64,000 nucleotides of DNA from Candidatus Nomurabacteria bacterium. GTDB lineage: Bacteria > Patescibacteriota > Minisyncoccia > Phycocordibacterales > UBA9973. Positions 8,677 through 37,918 of the stretch are shown here, piece after piece. The notes under the pieces are model-generated. The model saw only the letters and a program-made list of their open reading frames with translations, made no database searches and was not told where the DNA came from. The position numbers and the translations under genes are program-made. Every line of letters begins with the position of its first letter. Position 1 is the first letter of the stretch. The stretch lies in the NCBI GenBank assembly GCA_026396065.1, contig JAPLXO010000011.1, forward strand, positions 10,748 through 74,747, written 5' to 3'.

Positions 8677-8701
8677 TTTAGTAACTGATATAATAAAACC
8701 T

Positions 8702-10978: not shown

Positions 10979-11021
10979 TAAATTAAAGAATGTCGCGCTA
11001 AAAGGACTTACGCGACCTCAT

Positions 11022-11336
11022 TTGCAAAATCACATGTTTTGGAATAAAAATACAAATATACATACAGAAAGTACAGAAGAATTTTTTGACGACGAAAGTT
11101 TTAAAGAAATAAAGATGACCTTTATTGGTCGCGTGGTTACTATTATTATTGCTTCACTTTCATTGATCGCCGCACTTGCTTGGGAGGAAACACTTCACGA
11201 TTTATTCAGAGAATTTTTCACTAGTAGTGAATCAATACAAGGTAAACTACTTTATGCAATATTGGTGACTCTGCTTACTGTCATTGTTTCTGTTTTCGTC
11301 GGCCGAAGATTCCTTAAAAAAGCACGAAGGAAATAA
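11022..11336 (+). CDS. Small hypothetical membrane protein (two predicted TM helices)
   Basis: 104-aa ORF; hydrophobic stretches IGRVVTIIIASLSLIAALA and LLYAILVTLLTVIVSVFVG; between ATPase and paralog array. Confidence 0.4.
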   Translation: MQNHMFWNKNTNIHTESTEEFFDDESFKEIKMTFIGRVVTIIIASLSLIAALAWEETLHDLFREFFTSSESIQGKLLYAILVTLLTVIVSVFVGRRFLKKARRK

Positions 11337-11380
11337 ATACTTTTGCTGTATCAGTGTACTAGTACGATAGTATAAAAAAT

Positions 11381-13135: not shown

Positions 13136-13137
13136 TT

Positions 13138-14886: not shown

Positions 14887-14888
14887 TT

Positions 14889-14951
14889 ATGGAAACAAAA
14901 AACTGTCAAAATTGTCCCGATTTTTTAAAAATCGAGGATCCACGATTCTAA
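14889..14951 (+). pseudogene. Truncated ancestral N-terminal leader of paralog 3 (METKNCQNCPDFLKIEDPRF*), interrupted by a ~100-nt palindromic insert
   Basis: 20-codon ORF begins like the other paralogs (METKNCQNC). It then runs into the inserted element and a stop. ATGA overlap with the restart codon at 14951. Confidence 0.5.
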
Positions 14952-16684
14952 TGAATTATAATCGGGATAAAAAAGATATGGAACATCAATCAGAAAGTAA
15001 AATATGTCAGAATTGTAAGACTTCGTTTATTATAAAAGAAGAAGATTTTAATTTTTATGAAAAAATCAAAGTTCCTCCACCGACATTTTGCCCGGAGTGT
15101 AGAAACATACAACGTTTTGCTACTAGAAATTCAAAATCTTTATATAAACGTGCTTGTGATGGCTGTAAAAAAGAAGTTATATCACGATTTTCACCGCATA
15201 ATCCAGCAGTTATGTATTGCCGAGATTGTTGGTGGAGTGATAATTGGGACGCACTTTCTTTTGCAAAAGATTACGATTTTTCTAAAACTTTTTTTGAACA
15301 ATTTAAAGAACTTCTTTTCTCTGTACCACATGTATCACTTTTAAATAATAATATGCATGAAAGTGATTACTCAAACATGGAATCAGATGATAAAAGATGC
15401 TATCTAACCTTTGGAGGACATTATAATGAAGATTGTGCTTTTACTGAATATAGTCTTTGGGGACGTGAAGTATATGATTCTTATTGGTCATTAAAATCGG
15501 AACAATGTCATGGATGTTCTCTTGTTGAGCGTTGCTATCGCACTTATGGATCTGAACAATGTTATGACTGTCTCGATACACTTTTTTCTTTTGATTGTAC
15601 AAATTGTTCAAATATTATTGGTTGTATAGGGTTGAGAAATAAATCATATTGTATTTTTAATCAACAGTATTCTAAAGAAGAATTTTTTGAAATTAAAGAA
15701 AATTTAAATATTGGTTCATATAGAGCTCGAAAAGAACTAGAAGAGAAATCAAAAACATTTTGGCTTAGTTTCCCACATAAAGAGAGTTTGATAACTCATT
15801 CAAATGATTGTACTGGAAATAGTATAGTTAATTCAAAAAACTCAAAAAACATTTGGCAGGCAGATAGTGTTGAGGATTCCAAATATAGTTATATCGCAGC
15901 TTGGAATAAAAACTGTTATGACGAAACATCGGCTGGTAATGACGAGCTTTGTTATCTGTGCGCAAATGGTGGTGGTTTATATAATTCTATCGCTATATTA
16001 TATTCTTTTGGTTCAAATGTAGATAAGAAAAAACAAAGTTTTAATTGTGGTTATTCTTATACTGTTCTCAACTGCACTGATTGTTTTGGTTGTGTAGGAA
16101 TTCGTAATAAACAATATTGTATTTTGAACAAACAATATACCAAAGAAGAGTATTTTGAACTTTTAGAAAAAATTAAAAAAAGTATGTTGGAAAATCCTTT
16201 CCAATCACAAAAGACAGGACAAGTATTTAGCTATGGGGATTTCTTTCCATCAGAGCATTCACTTTTTGCTTACAATGAGACAGTAGCACAAGATTTATAT
16301 CCAAAAGATAAAGATTCTGCAGAGGCTCAAGGTTTTGTTTGGCGAGAAGAACCTGAACCACACTACGACTTTAATCATTATCAAATTCCTGATGATATAA
16401 AAGACGTAGATGATTCTATTTTGTCTCAAGTGTTAAAATGTGAAGAAAGTGGTAAGGGTTATAAAATAGCTCGATCTGAGTTAGCATTTTATCAAAAAAT
16501 GCAGATTCCAATACCTCGTATTTCGCCACTTATACGTATTCGAGACCGTGTACGTGCATTGTTACCATTTAAACTTTTTGATAGGCAATGTCAGAAATGT
16601 AATAAGGATATAAAAACTCCTTATTCTCCAGAACGCCCAGAAATTATCTACTGTGAAAAGTGTTACCAGCAGGAAGTATATTAA
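14951..16684 (+). CDS. Cysteine-rich zinc-ribbon protein, paralog 3 (577 aa from restart Met)
   Basis: MNYNRDKKDMEHQSESKICQNCKTSFII...; same family architecture; ends RPEIIYCEKCYQQEVY. Confidence 0.65.
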   Translation: MNYNRDKKDMEHQSESKICQNCKTSFIIKEEDFNFYEKIKVPPPTFCPECRNIQRFATRNSKSLYKRACDGCKKEVISRFSPHNPAVMYCRDCWWSDNWDALSFAKDYDFSKTFFEQFKELLFSVPHVSLLNNNMHESDYSNMESDDKRCYLTFGGHYNEDCAFTEYSLWGREVYDSYWSLKSEQCHGCSLVERCYRTYGSEQCYDCLDTLFSFDCTNCSNIIGCIGLRNKSYCIFNQQYSKEEFFEIKENLNIGSYRARKELEEKSKTFWLSFPHKESLITHSNDCTGNSIVNSKNSKNIWQADSVEDSKYSYIAAWNKNCYDETSAGNDELCYLCANGGGLYNSIAILYSFGSNVDKKKQSFNCGYSYTVLNCTDCFGCVGIRNKQYCILNKQYTKEEYFELLEKIKKSMLENPFQSQKTGQVFSYGDFFPSEHSLFAYNETVAQDLYPKDKDSAEAQGFVWREEPEPHYDFNHYQIPDDIKDVDDSILSQVLKCEESGKGYKIARSELAFYQKMQIPIPRISPLIRIRDRVRALLPFKLFDRQCQKCNKDIKTPYSPERPEIIYCEKCYQQEVY

Positions 16685-16686
16685 TT

Positions 16687-18459
16687 ATGGAAACACGAAA
16701 TTGTCAAAATTGTAAAAAAGATTTCACTATAGAGGTGGAGGATTTTAATTTTTATCAAAAGATAAAAGTTCCACCACCGACGTGGTGCCCAGAGTGTCGA
16801 CTTATTCGTCGTCTTGCTTATCGTGAAGAACGGTCTTTTTATAAAGATGAATGTGATAAATGCGGTCATGAAATAGTAAGTTTATTTGCACCAGAATCTG
16901 ATCTTCCTGTCTTTTGTTCTCCTTGTTGGTGGAGTGATAGTTGGGATGCTACATCTTATGGAAAAGACTACGATTTTTCTCGTCCATTTTTTGAGCAATT
17001 ATATCAATTAATGAAAGTCGTACCAAATCAGGCTACAAATACACGAAATTGTACTGATTGTAAATATTCTCATGGCAATATACGTTGTAAAAATTGTACT
17101 TTTGTTTTTGCTGGTATACAGTCTATTAATTGCTATTATTGTTCAACACCGATTTTCACAAAAGATTCTTTTGATTCAAGCTTTATTATAAATGCTGATC
17201 ATGTATATGAAGGTGTACATATAGGGGGAATATATAATTCAAAATTTATTTATTTTTCTGATGAATGCTTGGACTGTTCTTTTATTTTTAATTGTGTTGG
17301 ATGTTCAGATTGTTTTGGTTGTGTAAATTTAAGAAATCAAAAATATTGTATTTTTAATATTCAATATTCTAAAGAAGAATATAAAAAAGAAATTTTAAAA
17401 TGGGATCTAGGTAGTTATGAAAATTTACAAAAAGCACGAGAACTTTTTATGAAACTTTACCATAAAACACCAAGACGTTTTGCATTAATTTCAAATTCTA
17501 CAAATTGTATTGGTGATGATATTCAAAATACTAAAAATTGTAAAATATGTTTTTCTGCTACTCATGGAGTAGAAAATTCTAAATTTATTTTTCAATGTGG
17601 ATTATTGTTGAAAGATAGTTATGATGTGACACTAGGCGGAGATACTTCTGAGCTTGCATATGAAGTAAATGGTAGCACTCAATCACAAAAAAGTTTTTTT
17701 TGTAGGGGTAGTAATAACTTAAGAGATGTTGAATATTCAGATAATATATACAATGGATCCAATCTTTTTGGTTGCGTAAAATTGAGACATAAAAAATATT
17801 GTATTTTAAATAAACAATATACAAAAGAAGAATATGAAGATTTAATACCAAAAATAAAACAGCATATGATAGATATGCCATATGTTGATAAAAAAGGACG
17901 AGTCTATAAATATGGGGAATTTTTTCCAGTAGAAATAGCTTTATTTGCTTACAATGAAACCTGGGCACATCAATATTTTCCTATTACAAAAGAAAAAGCA
18001 ATAGAACAAGGTTACAATTGGCGTGATCCGATAGAAAGGGATTATAAAATAACTATTAACATTGGGAATTTGCATAATCATATTAAAGATGTGACTGATT
18101 CTATTTTAGATGAAGTGATAGAATGTGAACATAATGGAAAAAACTGTAATCAACAGTGCACTACTGCTTTTAGAATTTTACCAAATGAATTGGGTTTTTA
18201 TAGACAAATGAATTTGGCTTTGCCTAGAATATGCCCAAACTGTCGTCATTATGAAAGATTAAAAAAAACAAATCCACCAAAATTATGGCATGGAAAATGT
18301 ATGTGCGATGGTGTAGAATCAAGTAATAAAGAATATAGAAATACTATTAAGCATTTGCATGGAGAGGAGCCTTGCCAAAATGAATTTGAAACTTCTATAA
18401 GTAGTGAAAGAAAAGAAATAGTTTATTGTGAAAAATGTTATCAGGATGAATTTATATGA
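16687..18459 (+). CDS. Cysteine-rich zinc-ribbon protein, paralog 4 (590 aa)
   Basis: METRNCQNCKKDFTIEVEDFNFYQKIKVPPPTWCPECR...; ends KEIVYCEKCYQDEFI; first ATG is 16687 (the ORF-track start 16660 is an alternative codon). Confidence 0.7.
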   Translation: METRNCQNCKKDFTIEVEDFNFYQKIKVPPPTWCPECRLIRRLAYREERSFYKDECDKCGHEIVSLFAPESDLPVFCSPCWWSDSWDATSYGKDYDFSRPFFEQLYQLMKVVPNQATNTRNCTDCKYSHGNIRCKNCTFVFAGIQSINCYYCSTPIFTKDSFDSSFIINADHVYEGVHIGGIYNSKFIYFSDECLDCSFIFNCVGCSDCFGCVNLRNQKYCIFNIQYSKEEYKKEILKWDLGSYENLQKARELFMKLYHKTPRRFALISNSTNCIGDDIQNTKNCKICFSATHGVENSKFIFQCGLLLKDSYDVTLGGDTSELAYEVNGSTQSQKSFFCRGSNNLRDVEYSDNIYNGSNLFGCVKLRHKKYCILNKQYTKEEYEDLIPKIKQHMIDMPYVDKKGRVYKYGEFFPVEIALFAYNETWAHQYFPITKEKAIEQGYNWRDPIERDYKITINIGNLHNHIKDVTDSILDEVIECEHNGKNCNQQCTTAFRILPNELGFYRQMNLALPRICPNCRHYERLKKTNPPKLWHGKCMCDGVESSNKEYRNTIKHLHGEEPCQNEFETSISSERKEIVYCEKCYQDEFI

Positions 18460-18572
18460 ATAAAAAAACAAAATTAAAAATAGAATCTTTAAAATATTTA
18501 ATTCCAATCTTGTTAAAAACAATTAAATTTCGAATTAAAGTTTGGCGACGTAAAAACTTTTAAATAAGATAT

Positions 18573-20315
18573 ATGGAAACACGAAACTGTCAAAATTGTA
18601 AAAAAGATTTCACTATAGAGGTGGAGGATTTTAATTTTTATCAAAAGATAAAAGTTCCAGCGCCGACTTTTTGCCCAGATTGTAGAACAATACGTAGACT
18701 ATGTTGGAGAAATGAAATGTCTCTTTTTAAGAGAAAATGTGATGCTCCTGGACATGAAGAAATGCTCATTACATGTTTTCCTCCAGAAGAAAAACTCACT
18801 GTATATGATTCTACATCTTGGTGGGGTGATTCTTGGGATGCAATACAATATGGAAAAGAATATGATTTTTCCAAATCATTCTTTGAACAGTGGAGAGATT
18901 TAAGAAATAGTATTCCACTTCAGGCACTTTCAAACATAAAAGCGACTAACAGTGATTATTGTAATGTGGCAGAGGGCAGTAAAGATAGCTATATGTGTTC
19001 GGGTACTTGGAAAATAGAAAGAACTCTTTACTCTAATAGAGTTTCAGAAACAAAAGATTCCTCCGACTTGTATATAGTGTATCGTTCTGAGCTTTGTTAT
19101 GAAGATGTAATATGTTCTGATTGTTACCATTTAATGTACTCTTTAGATTGTAAAAGTTGTGTTGACTCATTTTTTCTCTATGATTGTGTGGGTTGCACAG
19201 ACTGTTTTGGTTGTAGTAATTTACGCAATAAATCATATTGCATGTGGAACGAGCAATTGTCTAGAGAAGAATATTTTCGTCATTTAGCAGAATATAATTT
19301 AAAAAATCATGAGACTATATCGATTTTAAAAAATAAATTTAAAGAAATTTGTTTGCAATCTTTACATCGTTTTTCACTTCAAATAAAATCAGTAAATTCT
19401 ACTGGTGACAATTTAGAAGGTACAAAAAATTGCAAAGTGTGTTTTGATGTTTCTGGAAAAATGGAAGATTTGAAATATGTGCATTGGACAGCTATTAGTG
19501 CAAAAGACGCTTATGATTCTGGCCCTGGTATTGGACAAGTTGAACTTGCATATGAATCCTTTGACACTGGAATAGGTAATTTCCGTAGTCTTTTTACGAG
19601 TGTTGTATATAGTTGTAACGATGTTGAATATTCATTTAATTGTCATGGTTCTTCGAATTTATTTGGTTGTATTGGAATTAGAAATAAAAAATACTGTATT
19701 TTAAATAAAGAATATACAAAAGGGGAATATGAAATATTATTGCCAAAAATTAAAGAGCAAATGATGCAAGTTCCATATATAGATAAAAAAGGAATTAATT
19801 ATAGATACGGTGAATTTTTTCCAGCAGAACTTTCTACTTTTTGTTATAACGAAACACAAGCACAAGATTATTTTCCAATAGATAAGGAATATGCATCTAA
19901 AATGGGATATCGTTGGCGTGATAAAAAGATAAGTGAATATCACATCACTATTGAATCAAAAGATCTTCCAGATTCTCTTGATGACGTTACAGATTCAATC
20001 ACTAATGAAATTATTGGATGTGAAAATAAAGATAAGATGAGTAATTATTGTAGAGGAGCATATAAAATAACTATCGATGAGCTGAATTTATATCGCAAGC
20101 TTGGAGTACCATTACCAAGACTTTGTTTTCTTTGTCGGCATGAAACTAGATTAAAAATGCGTAATCCAATGAAGCTTTGGAATAGACAGTGTATGTGTGA
20201 AAAAGAAAATCATCAACATAGTGGTAAATGTGAAATTACATTTGAAACATCATACGATCCTAATAGACCAGAAATAGTATATTGTGAAAAATGCTATCAA
20301 GCCGAGGTTTATTAG
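18573..20315 (+). CDS. Cysteine-rich zinc-ribbon protein, paralog 5 (580 aa)
   Basis: METRNCQNCKKDFTIEVEDFNFYQKIKVPAPTFCPDCR...; C-terminus NPMKLWNRQCMCEKENHQHSGKCEITFETSYDPNRPEIVYCEKCYQAEVY nearly identical to paralog 1. Confidence 0.7.
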   Translation: METRNCQNCKKDFTIEVEDFNFYQKIKVPAPTFCPDCRTIRRLCWRNEMSLFKRKCDAPGHEEMLITCFPPEEKLTVYDSTSWWGDSWDAIQYGKEYDFSKSFFEQWRDLRNSIPLQALSNIKATNSDYCNVAEGSKDSYMCSGTWKIERTLYSNRVSETKDSSDLYIVYRSELCYEDVICSDCYHLMYSLDCKSCVDSFFLYDCVGCTDCFGCSNLRNKSYCMWNEQLSREEYFRHLAEYNLKNHETISILKNKFKEICLQSLHRFSLQIKSVNSTGDNLEGTKNCKVCFDVSGKMEDLKYVHWTAISAKDAYDSGPGIGQVELAYESFDTGIGNFRSLFTSVVYSCNDVEYSFNCHGSSNLFGCIGIRNKKYCILNKEYTKGEYEILLPKIKEQMMQVPYIDKKGINYRYGEFFPAELSTFCYNETQAQDYFPIDKEYASKMGYRWRDKKISEYHITIESKDLPDSLDDVTDSITNEIIGCENKDKMSNYCRGAYKITIDELNLYRKLGVPLPRLCFLCRHETRLKMRNPMKLWNRQCMCEKENHQHSGKCEITFETSYDPNRPEIVYCEKCYQAEVY

Positions 20316-20325
20316 AATGAAGTCC

Positions 20326-20425
20326 ATGATAAGGGGTTTGGGTTGTATTTCTCCCTCTCCTTGATAAGGAGAGGCCGTCTACAGGTGTCCATCAACTACC
20401 GGTGGACTTTGGGTGAGGTGAATTA
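20326..20425. repeat. Intergenic repeat element B: hairpin ctccctctcctt-gata-aggagagg plus gggtgaggtgaat box
   Basis: Read directly; the same hairpin and box recur at 23776-23816; related G-box at 5755-5780. Confidence 0.65.
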
Positions 20426-20447
20426 TATGCTAAAATAATAATACATT

Positions 20448-21920
20448 ATGGGAAAGCCGAATCGAGTTCAGATAATCAAATATGGTCCACCACCACCAGA
20501 GCTTCCGGTGTTTGGAAAGGTGCCTCCTGAAGAGGTTTCTTTTATTGGACGTACGAATTACGTCGCAGCACTTGAAGAAAAGAAATTTATTTTCGGAATT
20601 AAGCGCGTTGACCGCCGAAGACATTTATATATCATTGGAAAGTCTGGGGTTGGAAAAACAAAGCTTCTAGAATTGATGCTTCGCCAAGATGTGACATATG
20701 GCCACGGTCTTTGTCTTATCGATCCACACGGTGACGTTATCGATGCAATGCTCGATTATATTCCAAAAGAGCGTGTTGAAGACGTTTGTATTATTGACCC
20801 TGCTGATATTGATTTCCCAGCATCTTTCAATCCTTTGGCAAATGTCGACCCAATGTTCAAATTTCAATTGACTCAAGGGTTAATCGAAGTTTTCCAAAAA
20901 CAATTCGGTGCAAACTGGACACCACGTCTCGAGCACGTTTTTCGTTTTACTTGTCTCGCATTACTCGATTATCCGTATGCTACGATGCGCGGAATGATCT
21001 CGATGTTGACAGATAGAAATTATCGTCAGAAAGTCGTGGAATATATTACAGACGACATGGTGAAAAGATTCTTCGCTATCGAATTCGCGGACTGGTCTGA
21101 AAAATTCGATACTGACGCTATTATTCCACTTGTTAATAAACTAGGTCAATTTCTTTCTGATCCCTTGCTTCGTAATATTTTCGGACAGAAGCAAAATAAA
21201 ATAGATATTAGTAAATTGATGAATGAACAAAAAATAATTTTTATTAATTTGTCTAAAGGGCGCCTCGGTGAAGAAAATTCGTCTTTCCTTGGTTCGATGT
21301 TTTTGACTAAAATTAAACAGGCCGGAATGGAGCGCGCTAGTATTGCCGAACGTGACCGTAAAGATTTTTATATTTATGTGGACGAGTTCCAAAACGTAGT
21401 GACACAAACTTTCGAAAACATTTTGTCGGAAGCTCGAAAATACGGTTTGAACCTTACTATGGCTCATCAGTATGTCGGTCAAATTATTCCAAAAGTTCAC
21501 CAAGCTGTACTTGGTAATACAGGTAGTGTCATTTGTTTTCGTGTAGGTGGAGAAGATGCTGTAAAATTGAAACCCGAATTTGAGCCATTATTCGGAGTGA
21601 AAGACATGATCAACCTCGCCGTAGCAGAATTTTATATCAAAATGACGATTGATGGAGAGTCTTACGATCCATTTTCTGCAGAGACACTTCGTGTATTACC
21701 TCCAAATCATCCTTCATATCGACAAGAAATTATAAATGCATCACGTAGAAAATATTCAATTCCAAAAGACGATGCGCAAAAATTGATTCAAGAGGAAGAA
21801 GCTACAATTATTCGAAGTGCAGAAGAAAAAGCTATTATTTCAGGAAAAGGCAAAAATGAAGTTGACGAAAATGAAAAGTCTGCAAAACCAGTCGCTAAAG
21901 AAGCTGAACCTATGATATAA
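20448..21920 (+). CDS. VirD4/TraG/TraD-like (FtsK-HerA superfamily) P-loop ATPase, paralog 2 (490 aa; no zinc ribbon or Pro-rich tail)
   Basis: Walker A IIGKSGVGKT; Walker B FYIYVDEFQNV; EARKYGLNLTMAHQYVGQI; collinear with 8702-10978 over ~450 aa. Confidence 0.6.
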   Translation: MGKPNRVQIIKYGPPPPELPVFGKVPPEEVSFIGRTNYVAALEEKKFIFGIKRVDRRRHLYIIGKSGVGKTKLLELMLRQDVTYGHGLCLIDPHGDVIDAMLDYIPKERVEDVCIIDPADIDFPASFNPLANVDPMFKFQLTQGLIEVFQKQFGANWTPRLEHVFRFTCLALLDYPYATMRGMISMLTDRNYRQKVVEYITDDMVKRFFAIEFADWSEKFDTDAIIPLVNKLGQFLSDPLLRNIFGQKQNKIDISKLMNEQKIIFINLSKGRLGEENSSFLGSMFLTKIKQAGMERASIAERDRKDFYIYVDEFQNVVTQTFENILSEARKYGLNLTMAHQYVGQIIPKVHQAVLGNTGSVICFRVGGEDAVKLKPEFEPLFGVKDMINLAVAEFYIKMTIDGESYDPFSAETLRVLPPNHPSYRQEIINASRRKYSIPKDDAQKLIQEEEATIIRSAEEKAIISGKGKNEVDENEKSAKPVAKEAEPMI

Positions 21921-21967
21921 ATTAAACAACATACTGACAAACTCCAGTATGTAAGGATGTTAAATTT

Positions 21968-22012
21968 ATGAATTCTGAAACAAAAAATTGCCAAAATTGT
22001 CCCGATTTTTAA
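21968..22012 (+). pseudogene. Truncated ancestral N-terminal leader of paralog 6 (MNSETKNCQNCPDF*), interrupted by the same insert as paralog 3
   Basis: Read directly; the same CQNC then cccgattttt... junction as at 14910. Confidence 0.5.
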
Positions 22013-22035
22013 AAAATCGAGGATCCACGATTCTA

Positions 22036-23775
22036 ATGAATTATAATCGGGATAAAAAAGATATGGAACATCAATCAGAAAGTAAAATATGTCAGAATTG
22101 TAAGACTTCGTTTATTATAGAACAAGAAGATTTTAATTTTTATGAAAAGATGAAAGTTCCTGCACCGACATGGTGTCCTGAATGTCGAATGGCACGTAGA
22201 TTCCTATTTATGAATACTTGGAATCTATATAGGCGAAATTGTGAAAAATGTGGGGAAAGTACACTTTCAATGTTTTCAGAAGATAAACCACATAAGGTTT
22301 TTTGTTTACCTTGTTGGTGGTCGGATGATTGGGATGGTACTGAGTATGCTATCAATTACGACCCCTCTCGTTCTTTTTTAGAACAGATGAAAGAGCTGGA
22401 ACTCAGAACACCTTGGATGGCTAATACTATGATGTATACAATGAATGTAAATAGCCCGTATTGTAATGCTACTGGTCCAGTAAAGAATTGCTACATGCTT
22501 TTTTGGGCAGATTATTGTGAAAATTCTTTTTACTCATCTTATTTGAATACTTTAAAAGATTCTATAGATTGTTATCGGGTAGCTCATAGTGAATTGTGCT
22601 ATGAAGGCACTGGTTTGAATAAATGTTACAGAACTTTCTTTTCGGAAGAGTGTGATTCTTGTACCGATACGTGGTTTTCAAGAGCTTGTTCTGGTTTAGT
22701 AAATTGTTTTGGTTGTATAAATTTAAGAAATAAAAATTATTGTATATTCAATGAACAATATTCTCAGGAAGATTATTTTAAAAAAGTAAAAGAATTTGAT
22801 CTAATATCTCATACGTCATTAGAAAAAATAAAAAAAGATGTTTTAGTGTTTTGGAGTAAATATCCAAGGCGATTTTATAACGGTAATGCGTTAAACAAAA
22901 ACGTTAGTGGTGATTATATTTATGAATCTAAAAATGCACAGAATTGTTTTATGGTTTCTGGGGCTGAAGATTGTAAATTTACTCAATTTGTAAGTATTCC
23001 AAAAGCCAAAGATTGTTATGATAATACTGGTTGGGGAGATGGTTCAGAAAGAATTTATGAGTCTACTGTTGTCGGCCTCGGAGCAAGTAATGTAAAATTT
23101 TCTAATGAATGCTGGCCTAATGCAATGAATACAGAATACTCTATCTATGCTATAGGTGGATGTAAGGATATTTTTGGATGTGTCAATTTAAAGAAAAAAC
23201 AATATTGTATTTTAAATAAACAGTATTCAAAGGAAGAATATGAAAAGTTAAAAGAAAAAATTATTAAAGATATGAATATAAATACTTTTATAGACTCAAA
23301 AAATAGAGTTTATAAATATGGTGATTCATTACCTATTGAATTGTCGCCATTTTCTTACAATGAATCAAATGCTGGTAAGTTTTTACCAATTACAAAAGAA
23401 AAAGCTTTAGAGCAAGGTTTCACTTGGTCAGAAGGAAAGGTGAATGAATATAAGATTACAGCCAAGGCGTCTGATTTACCAGATACAATCTCATATACTA
23501 CAGATGAGATACTAAACGACGTGTTTGAATGTGCTTCTTGTCAAAGAGCTTATAAATTTACTCTAGGTGAATTGAATTTAATGAGAAGACTTTCTTTACC
23601 ATTACCACATAAATGTTTTCATTGTCGTCAAGAATTTCGTTTTTCTAGATCTAATCAGGCTAGATTATACGATAGAAATTACATGAAATGCGGAGTAGAT
23701 TTAAAAACTTCTTATAATCCAGATAACACAGAAATAGTTTATTGTGAAAAATGCTATCAGCAGGAAGTATATTAG
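22036..23775 (+). CDS. Cysteine-rich zinc-ribbon protein, paralog 6 (579 aa from restart Met)
   Basis: MNYNRDKKDMEHQSESKICQNCKTSFII...; ends NTEIVYCEKCYQQEVY; the first 28 residues are encoded by nucleotides identical to paralog 3. Confidence 0.65.
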   Translation: MNYNRDKKDMEHQSESKICQNCKTSFIIEQEDFNFYEKMKVPAPTWCPECRMARRFLFMNTWNLYRRNCEKCGESTLSMFSEDKPHKVFCLPCWWSDDWDGTEYAINYDPSRSFLEQMKELELRTPWMANTMMYTMNVNSPYCNATGPVKNCYMLFWADYCENSFYSSYLNTLKDSIDCYRVAHSELCYEGTGLNKCYRTFFSEECDSCTDTWFSRACSGLVNCFGCINLRNKNYCIFNEQYSQEDYFKKVKEFDLISHTSLEKIKKDVLVFWSKYPRRFYNGNALNKNVSGDYIYESKNAQNCFMVSGAEDCKFTQFVSIPKAKDCYDNTGWGDGSERIYESTVVGLGASNVKFSNECWPNAMNTEYSIYAIGGCKDIFGCVNLKKKQYCILNKQYSKEEYEKLKEKIIKDMNINTFIDSKNRVYKYGDSLPIELSPFSYNESNAGKFLPITKEKALEQGFTWSEGKVNEYKITAKASDLPDTISYTTDEILNDVFECASCQRAYKFTLGELNLMRRLSLPLPHKCFHCRQEFRFSRSNQARLYDRNYMKCGVDLKTSYNPDNTEIVYCEKCYQQEVY

Positions 23776-28266: not shown

Positions 28267-28286
28267 AGATACATCTTACAAGAATC

Positions 28287-28315
28287 GCCCCGCTTTTGCA
28301 AAAGCAAAAGCGGGG
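28287..28315. promoter_or_regulatory. Perfect GC-rich 13-bp palindrome (gccccgcttttgc-aaa-gcaaaagcggggc) between divergent genes
   Basis: Read directly; ~20 nt upstream of the minus-strand start at 28266 and just upstream of the TTGACA-N17-TAGACT promoter-like hexamers (28329-28356) of the Rhs gene. Confidence 0.45.
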
Positions 28316-28362
28316 CAGATATAGGTGCTTGACACCTTTTTCCAAAGTGCTAGACTTTTTGT

Positions 28363-31300
28363 ATGCAAACATTAATTAGGCATCTGTCTAGTATTTTGTT
28401 CAAAAAGCCAAATTGGCATTTTTCTTCTAAAAATTTTATATTGAAAATTAAAAAATCACTATGCATCACAGTGATTTTTTCTTTTATATTCACTCCGACT
28501 TTTTCTATTTTTGCACAAGAAATAAAAGAAATTCCAAAAATAGCTGAAGTCGCTGTAAAAGAGACAACAATTTCAAGGGAAGCATCAAGAATTTTTCCAG
28601 ATAAAGAAAACACTGATTTAATAAAACCAATTACAAATACAATTATTTCTGTTGCAGAAGATATAAAAACAGACCCTGCATTAGAAAAGTTACCACCAGA
28701 GCAAACAGCGGTCGATTCAAATTCTGATTCAAATACAGATGAAAATAGTTCACAAAATAAAACACTCGCTCCAATTCTTCCTGGTGCAATTCCAGAAAAA
28801 CCACAAGATCAAAAGAAAGATGCTATTCCACAAATGAATTCTAATACTGGTGCTTTGAGTTATTCTTATTCAATTAATTTACCAAAAGGAACTGGCGGAT
28901 ATACACCAACACTTTCTTTAAATTACAACTCACAGAATGATGATAATTTTGGAAATCTTGGTCATGGTTGGGAATTGTCTATTCCAAATATTTCACGAAA
29001 AAATACACATGGAACCCAAGAACTTTATAATAGGAAAGACTTCAATTCTTCATTGGATGGAAATTTAGTAAAAGTTGATATCCAAGGGAATTTAGAAAAA
29101 TATTTACCTGAATCACTTTCTACTGCTTATAATACTTATATTTTAGATACCTCTACAAACATTTGGACCCTTACAACAAAAGATGGACAAATTTTTATTT
29201 TTGGTGCCAATACCGATAGCCGTCAAGATGATCCAAATAATCTCGCACATATTTATAAATGGATGCTTTCGTCTCAAATGGATAATAATTCAAATACAAT
29301 CACTTATACATACACAAAAAACCAAAATGCTATTTACCCACTAAACATTCATTATGCTATTTTTGACATAAATTTTTTAACAGAATCTCGTAATGATGAT
29401 TTACAACAAAAAACAACTAGCTTTTCAGTAACGAATGCATTTAGAATTAAAAATATTCAAATTTTTGAAAATTCAATTTTGAGAAATGACTATTCCTTAG
29501 AATATATTTATAGTCCTACAAATAATAAATCGCTATTACATGGTATAAAAATAAATAATACCAATGAAACAAGCTTTGATTATCAAAATACAATAACTGG
29601 TTGGACTTACGATACACATTTATCAAATGTTTTTCCTATTCCTTTTTTAAATCCTAATAACTCTCAGCCGTATGGAATGCGAGTAGCTGATATAAATGGC
29701 GATGGACTGCTCGATGTACTTTGTAGTAATTACAATTTACCTTCAAGCGGTTGTTATAACAATACATCAAAAATTTTTTTGAATACTGGAGATGGTTGGC
29801 AAGATGTAAGTAGTACTTGGACTTTTCCAATAAAACATGATTCTGCTATTAATGGCGGTACAGAATTAGAAAGATTTGCAGACAGTTCTTATGGCTCTAA
29901 TTCTAGCTATAGTACAGGGTTACAACTTATGGATATAAATGGAGATGGTTTAAATGATTTAATTCGAGGAAATGGTCAATTAAATTATATTTATTTAAAT
30001 AATGGTTCTGGTTGGGTATACAATACACAACTATCAAATGCTTTTCCGATGAGTTTTTTTAATAATAACAATCAAGATTATGGTATGCGAGTAGCCGATA
30101 TAAATGGTGATGGACTACTCGATGTACTTTGTAGTAATGGTATTAATGGTTATGGTAGTGGTTGCGGACAAACCAATCCTAAAATTTTTTTGAATACTGG
30201 AGATGGTTGGCAAGATGTAAGTAGTACTTGGACTTTTCCATTAAATCAATACAATATTATATATAATAATTTTCCAGTAAATACTGAATCTTTTGTAGAT
30301 TATTATAATAATCCTACAGGTTTACAAATTTTAGATGTAAATGGAGACGGTTTAAATGATTTAATTCGTACTGGTAATCCATATAAATTTATTTATATAA
30401 ATAATGGTCATGGGTGGACATATGATGCTTATATATCAAACGTTTTTCCTTTGACCTTTTTAAGTGTTGCTAATAATCATTTTGATCAAGAATATGGTAT
30501 GCGAGTAGGTGATATAAATGGTGACGGGCTATCTGATATTCTTTGTCATAATACAATGACTTCTGGCGCCTTATGTAATGATACTAATCCAAAAATTTAT
30601 ATAAATAAAATTAGTTGGCAAGACGTAAGTAGTACTTGGACTTTTCCAATAAGTAATTATGATTTGATACATTCCTATGTTAGCGTAAAAGAAGCATTTG
30701 GTAGTAATTATGGAAATATTACAGGGTTACAACTTATGGATATAAATGGAGATGGTTTAAATGATTTAATTCGTAGTCGCTATGCTTTCAATGATGTTTA
30801 TTTAAATAATAATCAAACCAAAGTTAATGTTTTAACTAAAATTACATACCTAACAGGAGGAATTACAGATATTGCTTATAAATCTTCAACAAAATATTTA
30901 GATTCATCTGGTAATCTTTTAAATCCCAACTTACCTTATCCGGTTCAAGTTGTTCAAAATATAAAAAATACAGACCCAGTTCGTAATATTGCAAGTCGAC
31001 ATCAGTATGAATATTCTGGTGGAGATAAAAGATATGATGGAGCATTTGATCATAAATTTTCTGGTTTTGGAAAAGTAATAGATAAAGAAACTAATTTTGA
31101 CGGATCTACAGTATATTCACAAAAAAATATTTATTATCATCAAGGAAATGGCGATGATTTAGCTAGTGGTGAAGCTAGTGATGCTAAAGCAAAAATAGGT
31201 CAAGCATATCGTACTGATATTTTAGATAATTCTGGAAATATTTTAGATAGTTCATACTCTAATACTAGTATAGTGAATATTTATACAGAGACGGGTGCTG

Positions 31301-34300
31301 GGTGTAATTATCCAGAAGTTTGTGATAGCGTCGACATGGTAAAGAGAGACGATAATATCCATGAAGTTTTCAACCATACAACAGGTGAACAAAGTAGCTC
31401 TGCTCAAAGTTTTACTTATGATAGTAATGGAAATATGATTGAACAAATAGAATATGAAAATGTTTCAGTTGATTCTCTTTTCAATTTTACGAATATTGGT
31501 GAAACACGAAAAAATGAAATGACTTATGTGTGTGGCGCGCTGGCATATGCCAGCGCGCCTAGATGTGAAGTATCCTCTGAAACACTCAAAGATAATAATA
31601 ATCTTATAGTAAAAAACGCTCTCCATTACTATGACAATTTACCATTTGGACAAATATCTACTGGTAATGGTACAAAAGATCAAAATTTAAAAATTGGTTA
31701 TACATACTCAGAACACAATTTTACTTTTGATAATTACGGAAATCTTTTGAGTGATACAGACCCACTTGGAAATGTAACAAGTTATATCTATGATGTAAAT
31801 AATATTTTACCTATCACTGTGACAAACGCTCTGGGACAAAGTAAACATTTTAGTTATGATTTTACTTTTGATGTACCACTTACAATTATAGATGAAAATA
31901 ATTTTACTTCAGACTTTACATACGATATTTTTGGTAGAAATTTGACTAAATCAATAAACAGCATTCTTTTAGAATCTAATATTTATAATGATGTGCCAAA
32001 CAATACATCAATTATTAAAACTTTTTATCCCACCTCTAACTCCACAACTATTTCTATTTCGTATTTAGATGGGCTAGGCAGAAAAATTCAAAATAAAACC
32101 TTACGTGAAGATGGTCAGTATGATACGATAGATACGATTTATTCAGATAGGGGACTAACAGATTCAAATTCACTACCTTATATTTCGTTCAATTCTACAT
32201 TATCACCAGCCACGGTGACACAGGCATTACTCACAAATTCAAATTATGATGTCTTGGGACGAGTAATTTCTACTACAAATGCACTAGGAACTTCTACAAT
32301 GTCCTACGATTTAAATGAAATGACTACCACGGATGCAAATGGTAAACAAAAGAAAATTACCACAGATAATTTTGGCCGATTAATATCAGTTACTGAATAT
32401 TTATCTGGCATACCTTACACCACACATTATACTTATCGTGCAGATGATGTATTACTAAATATTACAGATGCACTAGGTAATGTACGTAATTTTATTTATG
32501 ATAATAAAGGCGAAAAAAATTTAGCCGAAGATTTACATAATCCTACAGACACAAACTTTGGTGTTTATAGATATGATTATGATTTAGCTGGAAATATTAC
32601 TAGATATACAAACCCTAGACATCAAATGATATATTATACTTACGACACTTTAAACCGTTTACTTACTGAAGATTCAAATTCTACTGCCACTACAGATATT
32701 TCTTACTATTATGATTCTTGCCAAAATGGAATTACAAAACTTTGTAATGTTATAAAAACAAATACCAATACAAGTTATAAATATGATAACTTTGGAAATA
32801 TTGTTACAGAAAATCAAATGATCAATACTATGGTTTTTGAAACAAACTACGCATATTATGCTTCTGGATTATTAAGAAAGATAACATATCCAGATTCTTC
32901 TATTTCAGAGGCAAATTATACTTCTATGGGACGACCAGACAATATCTTATTTCAAAGTGATATAACATCTACACCAAGTATGATAGCTAGAATTAGTAGC
33001 TATCATACTTCTGGAAAACCAGACTCAATAATTTATGGTAATGGAGTAATTACAGATTTTGTTTATGATTCTACTAAAATGTATTCTTTGCAAAATCAAA
33101 AAAGTACAGATTTAGCAGGAAATATTTTTGAAAATCGCACTTATTCTTATGATGCAGTTTTGAATCCTACAAACATTACTGATATTGGAAATAATATAAA
33201 TGCAGGAAGTTCTGTCTACACTTATGATGATTTATATAGACTAACAACTTCTGTATTTACACCATCTGCGGGTACACCTATTACTAATTCGTGGACTTAT
33301 AATATTCTAGGAAATATTTTAACTCATAATGCCAATGTGTATGCTTATACTGGTAATATTGGAACATTTTACGCAAATCCACATGCGGTGACGAGTATTG
33401 GGCATGATTATTTATCTTATGACAAGTCTGGAAATTTAGTTAATTATTTAAATAAAAATTTTAGTTACAATTATAAAAATGAAATGACAAGTTCAAACAC
33501 AGGCACAATTTCGAATTATCTTTACAACCAATTTGGTTCCAGGGTATTTTATCAAAATGGTACCCATACAATTTACACTCCAAATGATATTTATACCTTA
33601 GAAGGAGCAGATAAGATTAAACAAATTTCTCTTGGTTCATTTCATGTTGCTGATGTTAAAAATTCTCTTGTAAACGGAGGGTTTGGACATCAAGGTGCAA
33701 TTCCACAACATGTTGATACTTTAAATTTCTTCCACACTGATACACTCGGCTCCACTCGCTTCGTGACGGATGAAAATGGTATAATAGAGCAAAGCTTGGA
33801 TTACAATCCATTTGGAGATATTCGAGTAGACAATCATAGTACTTTTAATTCAAAAGAAAAATTTATCGGCGAGAGGTTTGACGATGACACAGGTTTGAAT
33901 TATCTTAATGCGAGATATTACAATTCCGCCAACGGTCAATTCGTCTCCGAAGATCCAATGTTCTGGTCTATGCCAAAAGAATACTTCACTGATCCACAAC
34001 AGTGGAATAGTTACAGCTACGCGAGAAATAATCCGATTTCTCTTAGTGATCCAAGCGGAAAGTTTTCAATTTCTGAATTAGGTAACCAAGCAAAAAGCAT
34101 CGGAAGCAAAATCGCCGATTCAGTAAAAAATTTGTTTGGAGGGAATAAGGCAACTCCTTCTATACCAAAATATCTTGAGGCACCGAAAAATAACCAAAGT
34201 AGTGTTGGACATATTAGAAGTACCTACCTTTCTGTTACGTTTACTAAAGGGGCTGATAACCTTGTAAATCCTAAAACAGTCAATGGCTATGATAAAATCT

Positions 34301-34614
34301 TTAAGGAATCGAGTAAACTTGGTGTAAATTCAGTTAATTTTTATGCAACAACGAATCACGCTTCTGATACTGGTGGTTTCTCTTGGCACGATTCTGGTTT
34401 AGCTGGTGATATTAATATGGTAAATGGAATTCATGTTTCTAAAGATAATTCCTATGCAAAGATTTTACAAGAAGTATCTAGCAATCTTTCTGAAGTTAGA
34501 GAAAACTTTGGACCCTTTATGATTACACATAGCGAAAAGACTTATACACCTGCACAGTATCTAAAATTAAGTGATGGTCACCAAGATCACATACATACTT
34601 CTTTTAATCAATAA
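28363..34614 (+). CDS. Tc-toxin BC-like / Rhs-family polymorphic toxin: signal peptide, SpvB domain, FG-GAP-like repeats, YD repeats, RHS core, unrecognised C-terminal domain
   Basis: SpvB-like (TGALSYSYSINLPKGTGGYTPTLSLNYNS...GHGWELSIPNISRK); five repeats of DINGDGL(L/N)D; many YD repeats (Y.YD..GN); RHS core end (YNPFGDIRV...GLNYLNARYYNSANGQFVSEDP), then a ~220-aa unrecognised tail. An alternative in-frame TTG start at 28441 gives a cleaner signal peptide. Confidence 0.8.
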   Translation: MQTLIRHLSSILFKKPNWHFSSKNFILKIKKSLCITVIFSFIFTPTFSIFAQEIKEIPKIAEVAVKETTISREASRIFPDKENTDLIKPITNTIISVAEDIKTDPALEKLPPEQTAVDSNSDSNTDENSSQNKTLAPILPGAIPEKPQDQKKDAIPQMNSNTGALSYSYSINLPKGTGGYTPTLSLNYNSQNDDNFGNLGHGWELSIPNISRKNTHGTQELYNRKDFNSSLDGNLVKVDIQGNLEKYLPESLSTAYNTYILDTSTNIWTLTTKDGQIFIFGANTDSRQDDPNNLAHIYKWMLSSQMDNNSNTITYTYTKNQNAIYPLNIHYAIFDINFLTESRNDDLQQKTTSFSVTNAFRIKNIQIFENSILRNDYSLEYIYSPTNNKSLLHGIKINNTNETSFDYQNTITGWTYDTHLSNVFPIPFLNPNNSQPYGMRVADINGDGLLDVLCSNYNLPSSGCYNNTSKIFLNTGDGWQDVSSTWTFPIKHDSAINGGTELERFADSSYGSNSSYSTGLQLMDINGDGLNDLIRGNGQLNYIYLNNGSGWVYNTQLSNAFPMSFFNNNNQDYGMRVADINGDGLLDVLCSNGINGYGSGCGQTNPKIFLNTGDGWQDVSSTWTFPLNQYNIIYNNFPVNTESFVDYYNNPTGLQILDVNGDGLNDLIRTGNPYKFIYINNGHGWTYDAYISNVFPLTFLSVANNHFDQEYGMRVGDINGDGLSDILCHNTMTSGALCNDTNPKIYINKISWQDVSSTWTFPISNYDLIHSYVSVKEAFGSNYGNITGLQLMDINGDGLNDLIRSRYAFNDVYLNNNQTKVNVLTKITYLTGGITDIAYKSSTKYLDSSGNLLNPNLPYPVQVVQNIKNTDPVRNIASRHQYEYSGGDKRYDGAFDHKFSGFGKVIDKETNFDGSTVYSQKNIYYHQGNGDDLASGEASDAKAKIGQAYRTDILDNSGNILDSSYSNTSIVNIYTETGAGCNYPEVCDSVDMVKRDDNIHEVFNHTTGEQSSSAQSFTYDSNGNMIEQIEYENVSVDSLFNFTNIGETRKNEMTYVCGALAYASAPRCEVSSETLKDNNNLIVKNALHYYDNLPFGQISTGNGTKDQNLKIGYTYSEHNFTFDNYGNLLSDTDPLGNVTSYIYDVNNILPITVTNALGQSKHFSYDFTFDVPLTIIDENNFTSDFTYDIFGRNLTKSINSILLESNIYNDVPNNTSIIKTFYPTSNSTTISISYLDGLGRKIQNKTLREDGQYDTIDTIYSDRGLTDSNSLPYISFNSTLSPATVTQALLTNSNYDVLGRVISTTNALGTSTMSYDLNEMTTTDANGKQKKITTDNFGRLISVTEYLSGIPYTTHYTYRADDVLLNITDALGNVRNFIYDNKGEKNLAEDLHNPTDTNFGVYRYDYDLAGNITRYTNPRHQMIYYTYDTLNRLLTEDSNSTATTDISYYYDSCQNGITKLCNVIKTNTNTSYKYDNFGNIVTENQMINTMVFETNYAYYASGLLRKITYPDSSISEANYTSMGRPDNILFQSDITSTPSMIARISSYHTSGKPDSIIYGNGVITDFVYDSTKMYSLQNQKSTDLAGNIFENRTYSYDAVLNPTNITDIGNNINAGSSVYTYDDLYRLTTSVFTPSAGTPITNSWTYNILGNILTHNANVYAYTGNIGTFYANPHAVTSIGHDYLSYDKSGNLVNYLNKNFSYNYKNEMTSSNTGTISNYLYNQFGSRVFYQNGTHTIYTPNDIYTLEGADKIKQISLGSFHVADVKNSLVNGGFGHQGAIPQHVDTLNFFHTDTLGSTRFVTDENGIIEQSLDYNPFGDIRVDNHSTFNSKEKFIGERFDDDTGLNYLNARYYNSANGQFVSEDPMFWSMPKEYFTDPQQWNSYSYARNNPISLSDPSGKFSISELGNQAKSIGSKIADSVKNLFGGNKATPSIPKYLEAPKNNQSSVGHIRSTYLSVTFTKGADNLVNPKTVNGYDKIFKESSKLGVNSVNFYATTNHASDTGGFSWHDSGLAGDINMVNGIHVSKDNSYAKILQEVSSNLSEVRENFGPFMITHSEKTYTPAQYLKLSDGHQDHIHTSFNQ

Positions 34615-34616
34615 CA

Positions 34617-35063
34617 ATGAAAGACAATATAAATAAAATAAATATAGTGGAAAAGATTTGTATTTTGGTACTTTTTATTTTAATTTTCTATTTTATAAAT
34701 ATTTATTTTTTTAAAAAACCTAAAATTACCTTGGGAACTTTCACTGAAATCCCCAAAGATTTAATGGACTCAGGATGTACTTTCTACTGGAATCAAAGTG
34801 ACTTGGATAAAAAAGAAATAGCATTAATTGACACGTTCGGTTCTGGTGCTTTAATAGTTATTAACGGTAATTCTGAAAAATTAAAAGAGGTTCGTAATGG
34901 GGATCTTCTAAATTTTTCAAATGATAAATTTGAGGTAAAAATAAATATTATTAAAAGTACCTTAAATAATAACGAAGGTACTTACGAAGAAGGTATTTTA
35001 ACTGTTATTGGCAAAGATGGTGAAAGTACTTCAAAAAATGTTTTGGGTTATTGTGGATCATGA
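34617..35063 (+). CDS. Hypothetical membrane-anchored protein, candidate immunity protein for the Rhs C-terminal toxin
   Basis: 148 aa; N-terminal TM; starts 3 nt after the Rhs stop. Assignment is positional inference only. Confidence 0.4.
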   Translation: MKDNINKINIVEKICILVLFILIFYFINIYFFKKPKITLGTFTEIPKDLMDSGCTFYWNQSDLDKKEIALIDTFGSGALIVINGNSEKLKEVRNGDLLNFSNDKFEVKINIIKSTLNNNEGTYEEGILTVIGKDGESTSKNVLGYCGS

Positions 35064-35131: not shown

Positions 35132-35377
35132 ATGAAAAAATTAGTTATCTCGTCTTTTTTAGTTTTATCTTTGTTTGGTTTCATGGCTATTAGCTTAAAT
35201 ACAGCTGACGCTTCTGTCCGTGTACGTGGTTATACTACAAAACGTGGTACATATGTTGCTCCTTCATATCGTTCAAATCCAGATAGTTCTAGATATAATA
35301 ACTATTCAACAAAAGGCAATTACAATCCTTATACTGGTAAAAAAGGTTACACAGACCCTTACAAATATAATTGGTAA
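35132..35377 (+). CDS. Small secreted Tyr-rich hypothetical protein
   Basis: 81 aa; signal peptide ...NTADA/SV; repeated (R/K)GYT..(K/R)G.Y.PY units. Confidence 0.4.
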   Translation: MKKLVISSFLVLSLFGFMAISLNTADASVRVRGYTTKRGTYVAPSYRSNPDSSRYNNYSTKGNYNPYTGKKGYTDPYKYNW

Positions 35378-35382
35378 AAATT

Positions 35383-35757
35383 ATGGACAAAATAAATAAA
35401 TTATCTTTGCCCGCATCGATTTTAATAGCTAGTATTGTATTTGGTGGTTTTTATTACTTTAGCCAACTTAATAAACAAAAATCTATAGAACGAATGCAGG
35501 AAACTGCATTAGCCCAAGAAAAAAAATCAGAAAATAGTAGTGTTGAAAAACAAATTCAAGATGAATATAGAAAAGAATGTGAGGCATCACAAAATAAAAC
35601 AATAGAACAGCTAAATGATTTTTTAGATACTTGTTCAAAGTACAACTCAGAAAGTTATTGTTTAAACTCTGAAGCTGGTAAATTGTATCAAGGGGAACTA
35701 ACTCCAGAATCTATTCAAGCGTGTATTAACAATAAAAAGCTTAAGTATTCTCAATAG
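35383..35757 (+). CDS. Hypothetical membrane-anchored protein
   Basis: 124 aa from MDKINKL; one TM; four Cys in the exported part. Confidence 0.35.
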   Translation: MDKINKLSLPASILIASIVFGGFYYFSQLNKQKSIERMQETALAQEKKSENSSVEKQIQDEYRKECEASQNKTIEQLNDFLDTCSKYNSESYCLNSEAGKLYQGELTPESIQACINNKKLKYSQ

Positions 35758-35796
35758 GTTAAGTTGTGGAAATACTTTTAATAGAATTATATTAAT

Positions 35797-36030
35797 ATGG
35801 ATAATCTCAACTTTGGTAAACCACTACAAGATCATTCTCAAGAAGAATTGTTCTTTTTAATGAATAATAGTAGTTCAGAATTTGGTCTTCAAGCCCAATA
35901 CGAGCTTATGCGTAAATTATCGCTAGAAGATTCAAGGTCATCTAAGAGGTTCGGAAGATGGTCTCTTTTTATAGCCACCATTTCAATTTTTATTTCTATA
36001 ACTCTTAGCATTATTCAAATTTACCACTGA
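35797..36030 (+). CDS. Small hypothetical protein with C-terminal TM helix
   Basis: 77-aa ORF; tail-anchored topology. Confidence 0.3.
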   Translation: MDNLNFGKPLQDHSQEELFFLMNNSSSEFGLQAQYELMRKLSLEDSRSSKRFGRWSLFIATISIFISITLSIIQIYH

Positions 36031-37528: not shown

Positions 37529-37918
37529 ATGCCTGAAGATATAAAAAAACCATACAATATATTTTTATACACATTACTCACTAGTTGCGCTGTCGTAATT
37601 ATAATTTCTTTTTACAGCTTTTTCTTTCAAAAAAATTACGATTTTATTGTAGAAACAAAATGTGACAATACTATGGAGACTTGTTTTTATCGTGATTGTT
37701 CTGTGGAAGGCGACTGCCCGCCAAATAATCTTTCTTATTACAAAGTGTACACACTAAAAGCTAGAGATTTTTCAAAATGTACGAATGAAGATTGTACCGA
37801 TTTTTGTAATCAAAATAACGGAATCTGTATACAAACAGAATGCACTGATTCTGATATAACAGATGGCACTTGTGTCGTGTCTACACCTATGAGTGACGTT
37901 CCTAATACTACAAACTAA
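37529..37918 (+). CDS. Small Cys-rich membrane-anchored hypothetical protein
   Basis: 129 aa; N-terminal TM; 12 Cys in the C-terminal 90 aa. Confidence 0.35.
   Translation: MPEDIKKPYNIFLYTLLTSCAVVIIISFYSFFFQKNYDFIVETKCDNTMETCFYRDCSVEGDCPPNNLSYYKVYTLKARDFSKCTNEDCTDFCNQNNGICIQTECTDSDITDGTCVVSTPMSDVPNTTN

Follow-up and report, generated by a model that had tools for sequence, protein, structure and literature searches.

A predicted LAS-type zinc peptidase at the tip of an Rhs protein from Candidatus Nomurabacteria, and its putative exported immunity partner

We analysed a stretch of 64,000 nucleotides from a Candidatus Nomurabacteria genome (GenBank assembly GCA_026396065.1, contig JAPLXO010000011.1), referred to below as the window, which carries an rhs gene followed directly by a small gene on the same strand. 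A preliminary description of this DNA had reported an unrecognised tail at the end of the Rhs protein, containing WHDSG and HQDHIH, and had proposed that the tail is a toxin tip, possibly with a new fold and perhaps a metallo-hydrolase, and that the downstream open reading frame (ORF) 34617-35063 is its immunity gene. The features that bear on these proposals are listed here, with residue numbers referring to the protein named in each line.

28363..34614, + strand: rhs gene, product of 2083 residues, with Pfam and NCBIfam domains along its length
28459..28518, + strand: N-terminal hydrophobic segment of the Rhs protein, residues 33-52, SLCITVIFSFIFTPTFSIFA followed by QE, with the hydropathy maximum at residue 33
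33802..34059, + strand: Rhs-associated core, residues 1814-1899, ending in the P-ISLS-DPSG junction (TIGR03696, E 5.5e-17)
34060..34200, + strand: linker that joins the core to the toxin domain, residues 1900-1946 (about 47 residues), not conserved among relatives
34201..34611, + strand: predicted LAS-type (Hedgehog/DD-peptidase fold) zinc peptidase toxin domain, residues 1947-2083, based on 94 relatives, an AlphaFold2 model, fold matches and a profile match to the N-terminal domain of Sonic hedgehog (Shh-N)
34381..34410, + strand: S-W-H-D-S-G-L-A-G-D, residues 2007-2016, the H-x6-D motif, with H2009 and D2016 as predicted zinc ligands
34579..34596, + strand: H-Q-D-H-I-H, residues 2073-2078, containing H2076-x-H2078, assigned as the LAS H-x-H from conservation and alignment with VldE
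34617..35063, + strand: putative immunity gene, product of 148 residues, 2 nucleotides past the rhs stop codon
34656..34712, + strand: hydrophobic anchor of the immunity protein, residues 14-32 by hydropathy, overlapping a modelled helix of residues 3-31; at this place homologues have a lipobox or a cleavable signal peptide

The Rhs protein contains, in order, an N-terminal hydrophobic export segment, SpvB (residues 160-323, Pfam, E 1.2e-19), FG-GAP/FG-GAP_3 repeats (E 2e-18), TcdB_toxin_midN (residues 787-913, E 1.4e-20), RHS/YD repeats (RHS_repeat, E 3.7e-18), the Rhs core and the toxin tip. The N-terminal segment is predicted to be a Sec signal or anchor. A motif search found the end of the core in the context DDDTGLNYLNARYYNSANGQFVSEDP...NNPISLSDPSG, and the RHS/YD repeats, a core ending in PxxxxDPxG and a variable C-terminal tip, by which polymorphic toxins of the Rhs type are recognised, are all present. 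In characterised Rhs/TcC proteins the tip is freed by autoproteolysis at the end of the core, and by analogy the DPSG junction would be the site at which the aspartyl protease of the core releases the tip. The tail described earlier is present verbatim in ORF 28363-34614, with both of its motifs. Its borders, however, had to be moved, as SMPKEY starts at 33967 and not at 33960, and residues 1867-1899 (33 residues) are still part of the Rhs core. The true tip comprises residues 1900-2083 (34060-34611), 184 residues in all, made up of the linker and a folded domain of about 137 residues; the matches to relatives begin only at tail residues 45-55 or so.

The tip has no match at threshold in Pfam, NCBIfam or PHROG, in agreement with the description of the tail as unrecognised. 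The sole library trace is to Peptidase_M15_4, with 13.9-15.2 bits against a cut-off of 25, and it lies exactly on FSWHDSGLAGD. Within this segment, SWHDSGLAGD (WHDSG is residues 2008-2012) is an exact instance of the pattern S-x-H-x-x-G-x-A-x-D. When the tail was shuffled, this pattern followed by H-x-H was obtained in about 1 of 10,000 shuffles, and because the motif pair is so rare in shuffled tails, the His/Asp clusters are not the result of chance. Pfam searches run member by member across the family gave sub-threshold matches only, and all were to families of the LAS fold: M15_3 (best 7e-5), VanY (2e-4), M15_4, M74, HH_signal and Extensin-like_C.

A word-indexed protein search with the tip found no relatives. 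An exhaustive HMMER scan of 1.84 billion representatives, with a cut-off of E <= 1e-3, found 94, of which 25 have E <= 1e-10; these counts are of cluster representatives at 50% identity. The relatives range from 71 to 2271 residues and include proteins from bacteria of the candidate phyla radiation (CPR) and from Bacteroidales. In about 90 of the 94, the matched segment of about 135 residues is the extreme C-terminus, and in 38 of the 94 a PxxxxDPxG Rhs junction is found upstream of the domain, with a linker (median about 75 residues) in between. Several long relatives (P0009, P0040 and P0094) resemble the window protein in the tip domain alone. With its C-terminal placement, the Rhs junctions and the unrelated scaffolds, the tip domain behaves, as judged from these sequences, like a toxin cassette.

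The closest full-length relative, P0002, is from a Candidatus Paceibacterota metagenome-assembled genome (MAG; locus L001). Its Rhs body is 24-48% identical to that of the window protein per 100-residue segment, against 67% over the final 83 residues. With 59-67% identity, the toxin domain is therefore far better kept in this pair than the Rhs shell, which is the reverse of the usual Rhs pattern of a conserved shell and a variable tip. A further arrangement is seen in two Bacteroidales MAGs (L003, 1-3150, and L004, 1-4902), where the LAS tip is on short 'orphan' Rhs C-terminal fragments of about 300 residues that start inside the core. The immunity gene comes next in both loci, followed by a second orphan tip (L003, 1517-2530; L004, 1717-2925) with a different C-terminal domain, and by another small gene. 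This arrangement looks like the classic arrays of displaced tips.

Despite a mean identity of only about 30% over the 94 relatives, H2009 (97-100%), D2016 (100%), H2073, H2076 and H2078 (96-100% each), P2051 and F1960 are invariant or nearly so, and T1996, A2014, N2021, Q2036, E2047 and G2050 are highly conserved. This pattern of conservation points to a catalytic site.

An AlphaFold2 model of residues 1937-2083, built from an alignment of 45 sequences, has a mean predicted local distance difference test score (pLDDT) of 92.9 and a predicted template modelling score of 0.86, with low pLDDT in the first 10 or so modelled residues. When the model was compared with the PDB by Foldseek, the top 45 matches were all LAS, or Hedgehog/DD-peptidase, proteins (probability 0.82-1.00, TM-score 0.44-0.59), among them MepA (1tzp and 1u10; best E 1.4e-3), the N-domains of Sonic, Indian and Desert hedgehog, and VldE (9flk-9fln). 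ChiX (5opz) is further down the list, at rank 49 with a probability of 0.35. The best matches among viral models (BFVD) are tape-measure proteins of actinophages (Gordonia and Mycobacterium phages) and M15A/M15B peptidases. Sequence profiles give the same placement. The profile of 33 more distant members of the family (A6) matches Shh-N among the PDB sequences with E 2.4e-5 and 27.7 bits, and that of 45 closer members (A1) gives E 0.037 for VldE and about 0.2 for Shh-N; VldE is weak in the A2 and A6 searches (E 0.56-0.69). The alignment of A6 with Shh-N runs from the first strand through S-n-H-y-k-G-r-A-v-D-i, opposite S-L-H-Y-E-G-R-A-V-D-I of Shh, and also pairs the H-x-H with K-A-H-I-H (H181-x-H183).

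In the literature, this class of peptidases is defined by the combination of H-X(6)-D and H-X-H (PMC6027127). Because these motifs define the class, and with the shared alpha/beta fold and significant profile similarity that are also found in the tip, we place it in the LAS superfamily (MEROPS clan MD). On the strength of the motifs, the profile match and the model, the tip domain is a predicted, divergent LAS-type zinc peptidase, new as a sequence family but with a known fold and known chemistry. The clusters that the preliminary description had suggested as possible metal-binding or catalytic groups of a metallo-hydrolase are, as predicted here, the LAS H-x6-D and H-x-H. Its suggestion of a possibly new toxin fold has to be given up, as the model matches the known LAS fold only and the family profile reaches Shh-N. 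No confident match to a known Rhs-associated toxin family, the outcome that it had set against its own reading, was obtained, and no curated toxin family covers the domain.

The structure of VldE provides a guide to the active site. VldE cuts the stem peptide between L-Ala and D-iGln, with H301, D308 and H375 as the ligands of its catalytic zinc. Its canonical H-x-H consists of H373 and H375, and just ahead of this are H370 and D372, on a loop that can take up further zinc ions (PMC11667670). The profile alignment places H-Y-D-H-V-H of VldE (...NHYDHVHVS) opposite G-H-Y-D-H-I-H of the family and H-Q-D-H-I-H of the window protein. By analogy, H2009, D2016 and H2078 are the predicted zinc ligands, and H2076, the first His of the H-x-H, is the predicted catalytic histidine. 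What is the function of the rest of HQDHIH? H2073 would be the counterpart of H370 in VldE and D2075 that of D372, although D2075 is probably not essential.

The gene right after the toxin domain is homologous to ORF 34617-35063 in nine of nine distinct loci from CPR bacteria and Bacteroidales: the window, L001, three Bacteroidales MAGs (L002-L004) and four metagenomic loci (L005, L007, L008 and L010). The downstream gene matches ORF 34617-35063 with E 4e-36 in L001 and E 3e-11 in L002. All members of the family carry an N-terminal signal peptide, a lipobox or a membrane anchor, and two cysteines are conserved (C54 and C146). The AlphaFold2 model of the window protein (pLDDT 86) has a membrane helix at residues 3-31, followed by an all-beta domain, for which no convincing structural neighbour was found, only a lipocalin- or avidin-like resemblance with a TM-score of about 0.3. 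The family has no Pfam match and is annotated merely as 'hypothetical protein'; NTZ44_03720, from a Candidatus Nomurabacteria MAG, has the same sequence as the product of ORF 34617-35063. The linkage with the tip is that expected of a cognate immunity gene, with a putative protective role, as had been proposed, and the tail, with its core junction and cassette behaviour, stands as the predicted toxin tip of a polymorphic Rhs protein. An exported partner protein fits a toxin that acts on the wall and not in the cytoplasm. At L010 (1150-2212), a single toxin gene is followed by two immunity-family genes in tandem, which have diverged from each other (products of 175 and 162 residues) and may represent a duplication of the immunity gene or a leftover from a lost tip.

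The known proteins that most resemble the tip domain differ from it in their context. The C-terminal MT3 domain of VldE (Spr1875) from Streptococcus pneumoniae also has the LAS fold (PDB 9flh-9fln; Foldseek probability 0.82-0.99; PMC11667670). It shares with the tip both the H-x6-D and H-x-H motifs and the extended H-x-D-H-x-H (HYDHVH and HQDHIH), and an upstream Y/F-[GA]-P-F segment also aligns with the family. However, the sequence similarity is below threshold (E 0.037), and VldE, an L,D-endopeptidase with a LysM domain at its N-terminus, has a housekeeping role related to stress and is neither a toxin tip nor a protein with an immunity partner. Hedgehog-N, grouped here with the bacterial Hh-DD-peptidases (M15A-like), gives the only significant sequence-profile match among solved structures, with TM-scores of 0.54-0.59 for the fold, but it is a morphogen of eukaryotes that has Ca sites, and its catalytic Glu (E177) is four residues ahead of the H-x-H, where the tip family has Gly, with H2073 at -3. 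Furthermore, Hedgehog-N is an N-terminal domain fused to Hint, whereas the window domain is a toxin tip with an immunity gene. MepA (M74), ChiX, phage M15 endolysins and tape-measure peptidases have the fold and metal-site arrangement of the tip, and all cut peptidoglycan peptide bonds; they have housekeeping, secretion-helper or phage-lysis roles, are 12-18% identical to the tip, and do not have the ENxGP, Q and TT signature of its family.

Among interbacterial toxins, one comparison is with predicted LAS-type effectors of type VI secretion systems (T6SS). WHIX effectors are predicted to contain Peptidase M15-like and MepA-like DD-peptidase domains (PMC12135965), Tpe14 of A. baumannii combines LysM, M15_3 and M23 (PMC6833914), and M15 proteins occur in Neisseria T6SS loci (PMC10210955). 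These are likewise predicted peptidoglycan peptidases of the LAS fold with an adjacent immunity gene, but they are seen by the M15 models of CDD and Pfam and are carried on WHIX, LysM or VgrG-associated cargo of Proteobacteria. The window family, by contrast, escapes all curated models, is a C-terminal tip of Rhs proteins and has its own immunity family. The wall-targeting Rhs/YD toxins catalogued by Zhang et al. 2012 have the same shell, a variable tip, an immunity gene and a predicted peptidoglycan target, but their tips have different catalytic folds, namely NlpC/P60, YkuD-type L,D-peptidase and FlgJ/amidase-like; that catalogue makes no mention of LAS, M15 or VanY. In a limited literature search, neither an Rhs tip with a LAS domain nor this immunity family was found to have been described. 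As a kind, polymorphic toxins that target the wall and are paired with extracytoplasmic immunity proteins are well established.

The shell resembles the TcB-TcC (BC) cocoon of Tc toxins, with SpvB, the FG-GAP propeller, TcdB_midN, the RHS shell and the core all as in the window protein. The complete Tc (ABC) complex has a TcA translocator; none was found among the window ORFs scanned for TcA-type Pfam domains, which were those between 6742 and 41812, plus 50251-52827. WapA of B. subtilis has a Sec-type N-terminus and is made by an organism without an outer membrane, like the window protein, but it does not have the SpvB/TcdB_midN half. The payload of the window protein is predicted to act outside the cytoplasm, unlike those of TcB-TcC and WapA.

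We suggest that the tail is probably a peptidoglycan-hydrolysing, LAS-type Rhs toxin tip with an extracytoplasmic immunity protein. The Rhs protein, a TcB/TcC-like shell, would be exported via Sec by the Candidatus Nomurabacteria cell, and the tip would be released after the end of the core at DPSG (residue 1899). Residues 1947-2083 would fold as a LAS zinc peptidase, with Zn2+ held by H2009, D2016 and H2078, and with catalysis by H2076. The enzyme would most likely cleave a peptide bond of peptidoglycan, in the stem peptide or the cross-link, in a neighbouring cell, and thereby weaken its wall. The producer would be shielded by the product of 34617-35063, a membrane-anchored, extracytoplasmic, beta-rich protein that is presumed to bind and block the peptidase.

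Several observations weigh against this proposal. No member of the family reaches the gathering threshold of Pfam Peptidase_M15_4, M15_3, VanY or Peptidase_M74, so that the tip domain would be in the LAS superfamily but in none of its curated families. The E-values of the fold search are only about 1e-3, and the best TM-scores are 0.54-0.59. The transition-state Arg (R294 in VldE, and also present in VanX) has no obvious equivalent in GGFSWH of the window protein, unlike many relatives, which have R or K three residues ahead of the His, and the family has D, N, R or T at the position of D2075. Hedgehog-N, which gives the best sequence match, is not known to act on peptidoglycan. Finally, neither a TcA-like gene nor another delivery partner turned up within about 20 kb upstream and about 7 kb downstream. 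The missing Arg could mean that the domain is a pseudo-peptidase, a non-catalytic LAS-fold module that binds wall precursors or a receptor, and some Hedgehog proteins do signal without catalytic residues (PMC6027127). We consider this extremely improbable, since all three predicted zinc ligands and the predicted catalytic His are kept in 96-100% of the 94 sequences, and such conservation at about 30% identity argues for retained chemistry.

If the domain is an active zinc peptidase, must its substrate be peptidoglycan? A surface or periplasmic protein, or another polymer containing D-amino acids, could be cleaved instead. The strongest sequence match is to Hedgehog-N, for which the natural substrate, if any, is not known (PMC6027127), and the family motifs TT, Q2036 and ENxGP have no assigned role; specificity is not readable from the sequence. 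However, every characterised bacterial or phage fold match (MepA, VldE, ChiX and the M15 endolysins) acts on peptidoglycan peptides, and the immunity proteins are extracytoplasmic, consistent with a wall target, so a different substrate seems very unlikely. Alternatively, the same peptidase might be a tool for breaching walls and not a killing toxin, used by a CPR bacterium, presumed to be an episymbiont, to make a local opening in the peptidoglycan of its host and so attach to it or feed on it, with the downstream protein merely guarding against self-damage. The producing organism is indeed a CPR bacterium, no dedicated injection machinery was found near the locus among the ORFs scanned, and the best viral fold matches are tape-measure proteins. 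The MT3 peptidases of phage tape-measure proteins and enzymes of the ChiX/TagX type open walls for passage, and ChiX and VldE are wall remodellers, not toxins. Against this, the domain is found as a C-terminal cassette on scaffolds that are unrelated to each other, and in orphan Rhs-tip arrays of Bacteroidales beside other tip/immunity modules, a distribution that is the hallmark of polymorphic toxins used in antagonism; and its tight 1:1 linkage with an immunity-like gene is typical of toxins. We therefore regard a wall-breaching role as unlikely, and favour the antagonistic wall-hydrolysing toxin with its immunity protein.

The locus has housekeeping genes as neighbours: dnaK, dnaJ, PBP2, an arginase-family gene, NUDIX, EamA, a histidine kinase and cysS. 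The DNA has a GC content of about 31%. The adjoining PBP2 gene implies that the producer makes peptidoglycan, and hence needs protection. In two other loci, a 643-residue PG_binding_1 protein is encoded upstream of the toxin-domain gene (L008, 1257-3188; L009, 119-2050), which fits a wall-directed function of the neighbourhood. In the 96-bp gap between the rhs gene and the divergently transcribed arginase-family gene there is a perfect GC-rich hairpin at 28286-28317, with 14 pairs, 9 of them G-C (TGCCCCGCTTTTGC-TTTT-GCAAAAGCGGGGCG); since a terminator would be unusual in a gap between divergent genes, the hairpin may have a regulatory role. Between dnaK and dnaJ is a block (8672-23775, + strand) that contains a run of six ORFs of about 580-640 residues with overlapping ends, flanked and interrupted by two coupling-protein ATPases of the VirD4/TraG-like kind (8672-10978 and 20448-21920). 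Three of the six have a short zinc finger of the treble-clef type (PF23477), the only Pfam domain in the run. The block may represent an uncharacterised module of CPR bacteria for secretion or DNA transfer. Small ORFs without a family match, none of which is matched by the hidden Markov models of the toxin and immunity families, are found past the immunity gene, in 35132-36030 and 37529-37918:

35132-35377: secreted protein of 81 residues, rich in Tyr, Asn and Arg
35371-35757: membrane-anchored protein of 128 residues
35797-36030: protein of 77 residues with a C-terminal hydrophobic segment
37529-37918: Cys-rich protein of 129 residues with an N-terminal anchor

The general understanding of such toxin systems is unchanged by these results; the proposed weapon is of an ordinary bacterial kind, with a new toxin and immunity family. 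Polymorphic toxin systems have already been identified as the source of SuFu and of the Hint domain of Hedgehog (PMC12419801). It is a speculative and quite unlikely idea that the window family is a surviving relative of the bacterial toxin cassette from which the zinc-peptidase 'Hedge' domain of Hedgehog arose, but if so, a single type of bacterial conflict system could have supplied all three of the ancestral parts of the Hedgehog pathway. A second idea of this speculative kind is that a CPR episymbiont delivers a wall hydrolase to its host by means of a Sec-exported, BC-type Rhs cocoon without TcA. The analysis proposes a function for an Rhs tip that curated libraries leave blank, and defines two uncatalogued families, the toxin domain with its 94 or so cluster representatives and the exported immunity partner. 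If our reading is correct, they offer a compact peptidoglycan peptidase of about 137 residues and its natural protein inhibitor for biochemistry. Because the family spans CPR bacteria and Bacteroidales, it could mark antagonism loci in the annotation of metagenomes. The LAS zinc-peptidase fold would join the repertoire of wall-targeting toxins borne by Rhs proteins.

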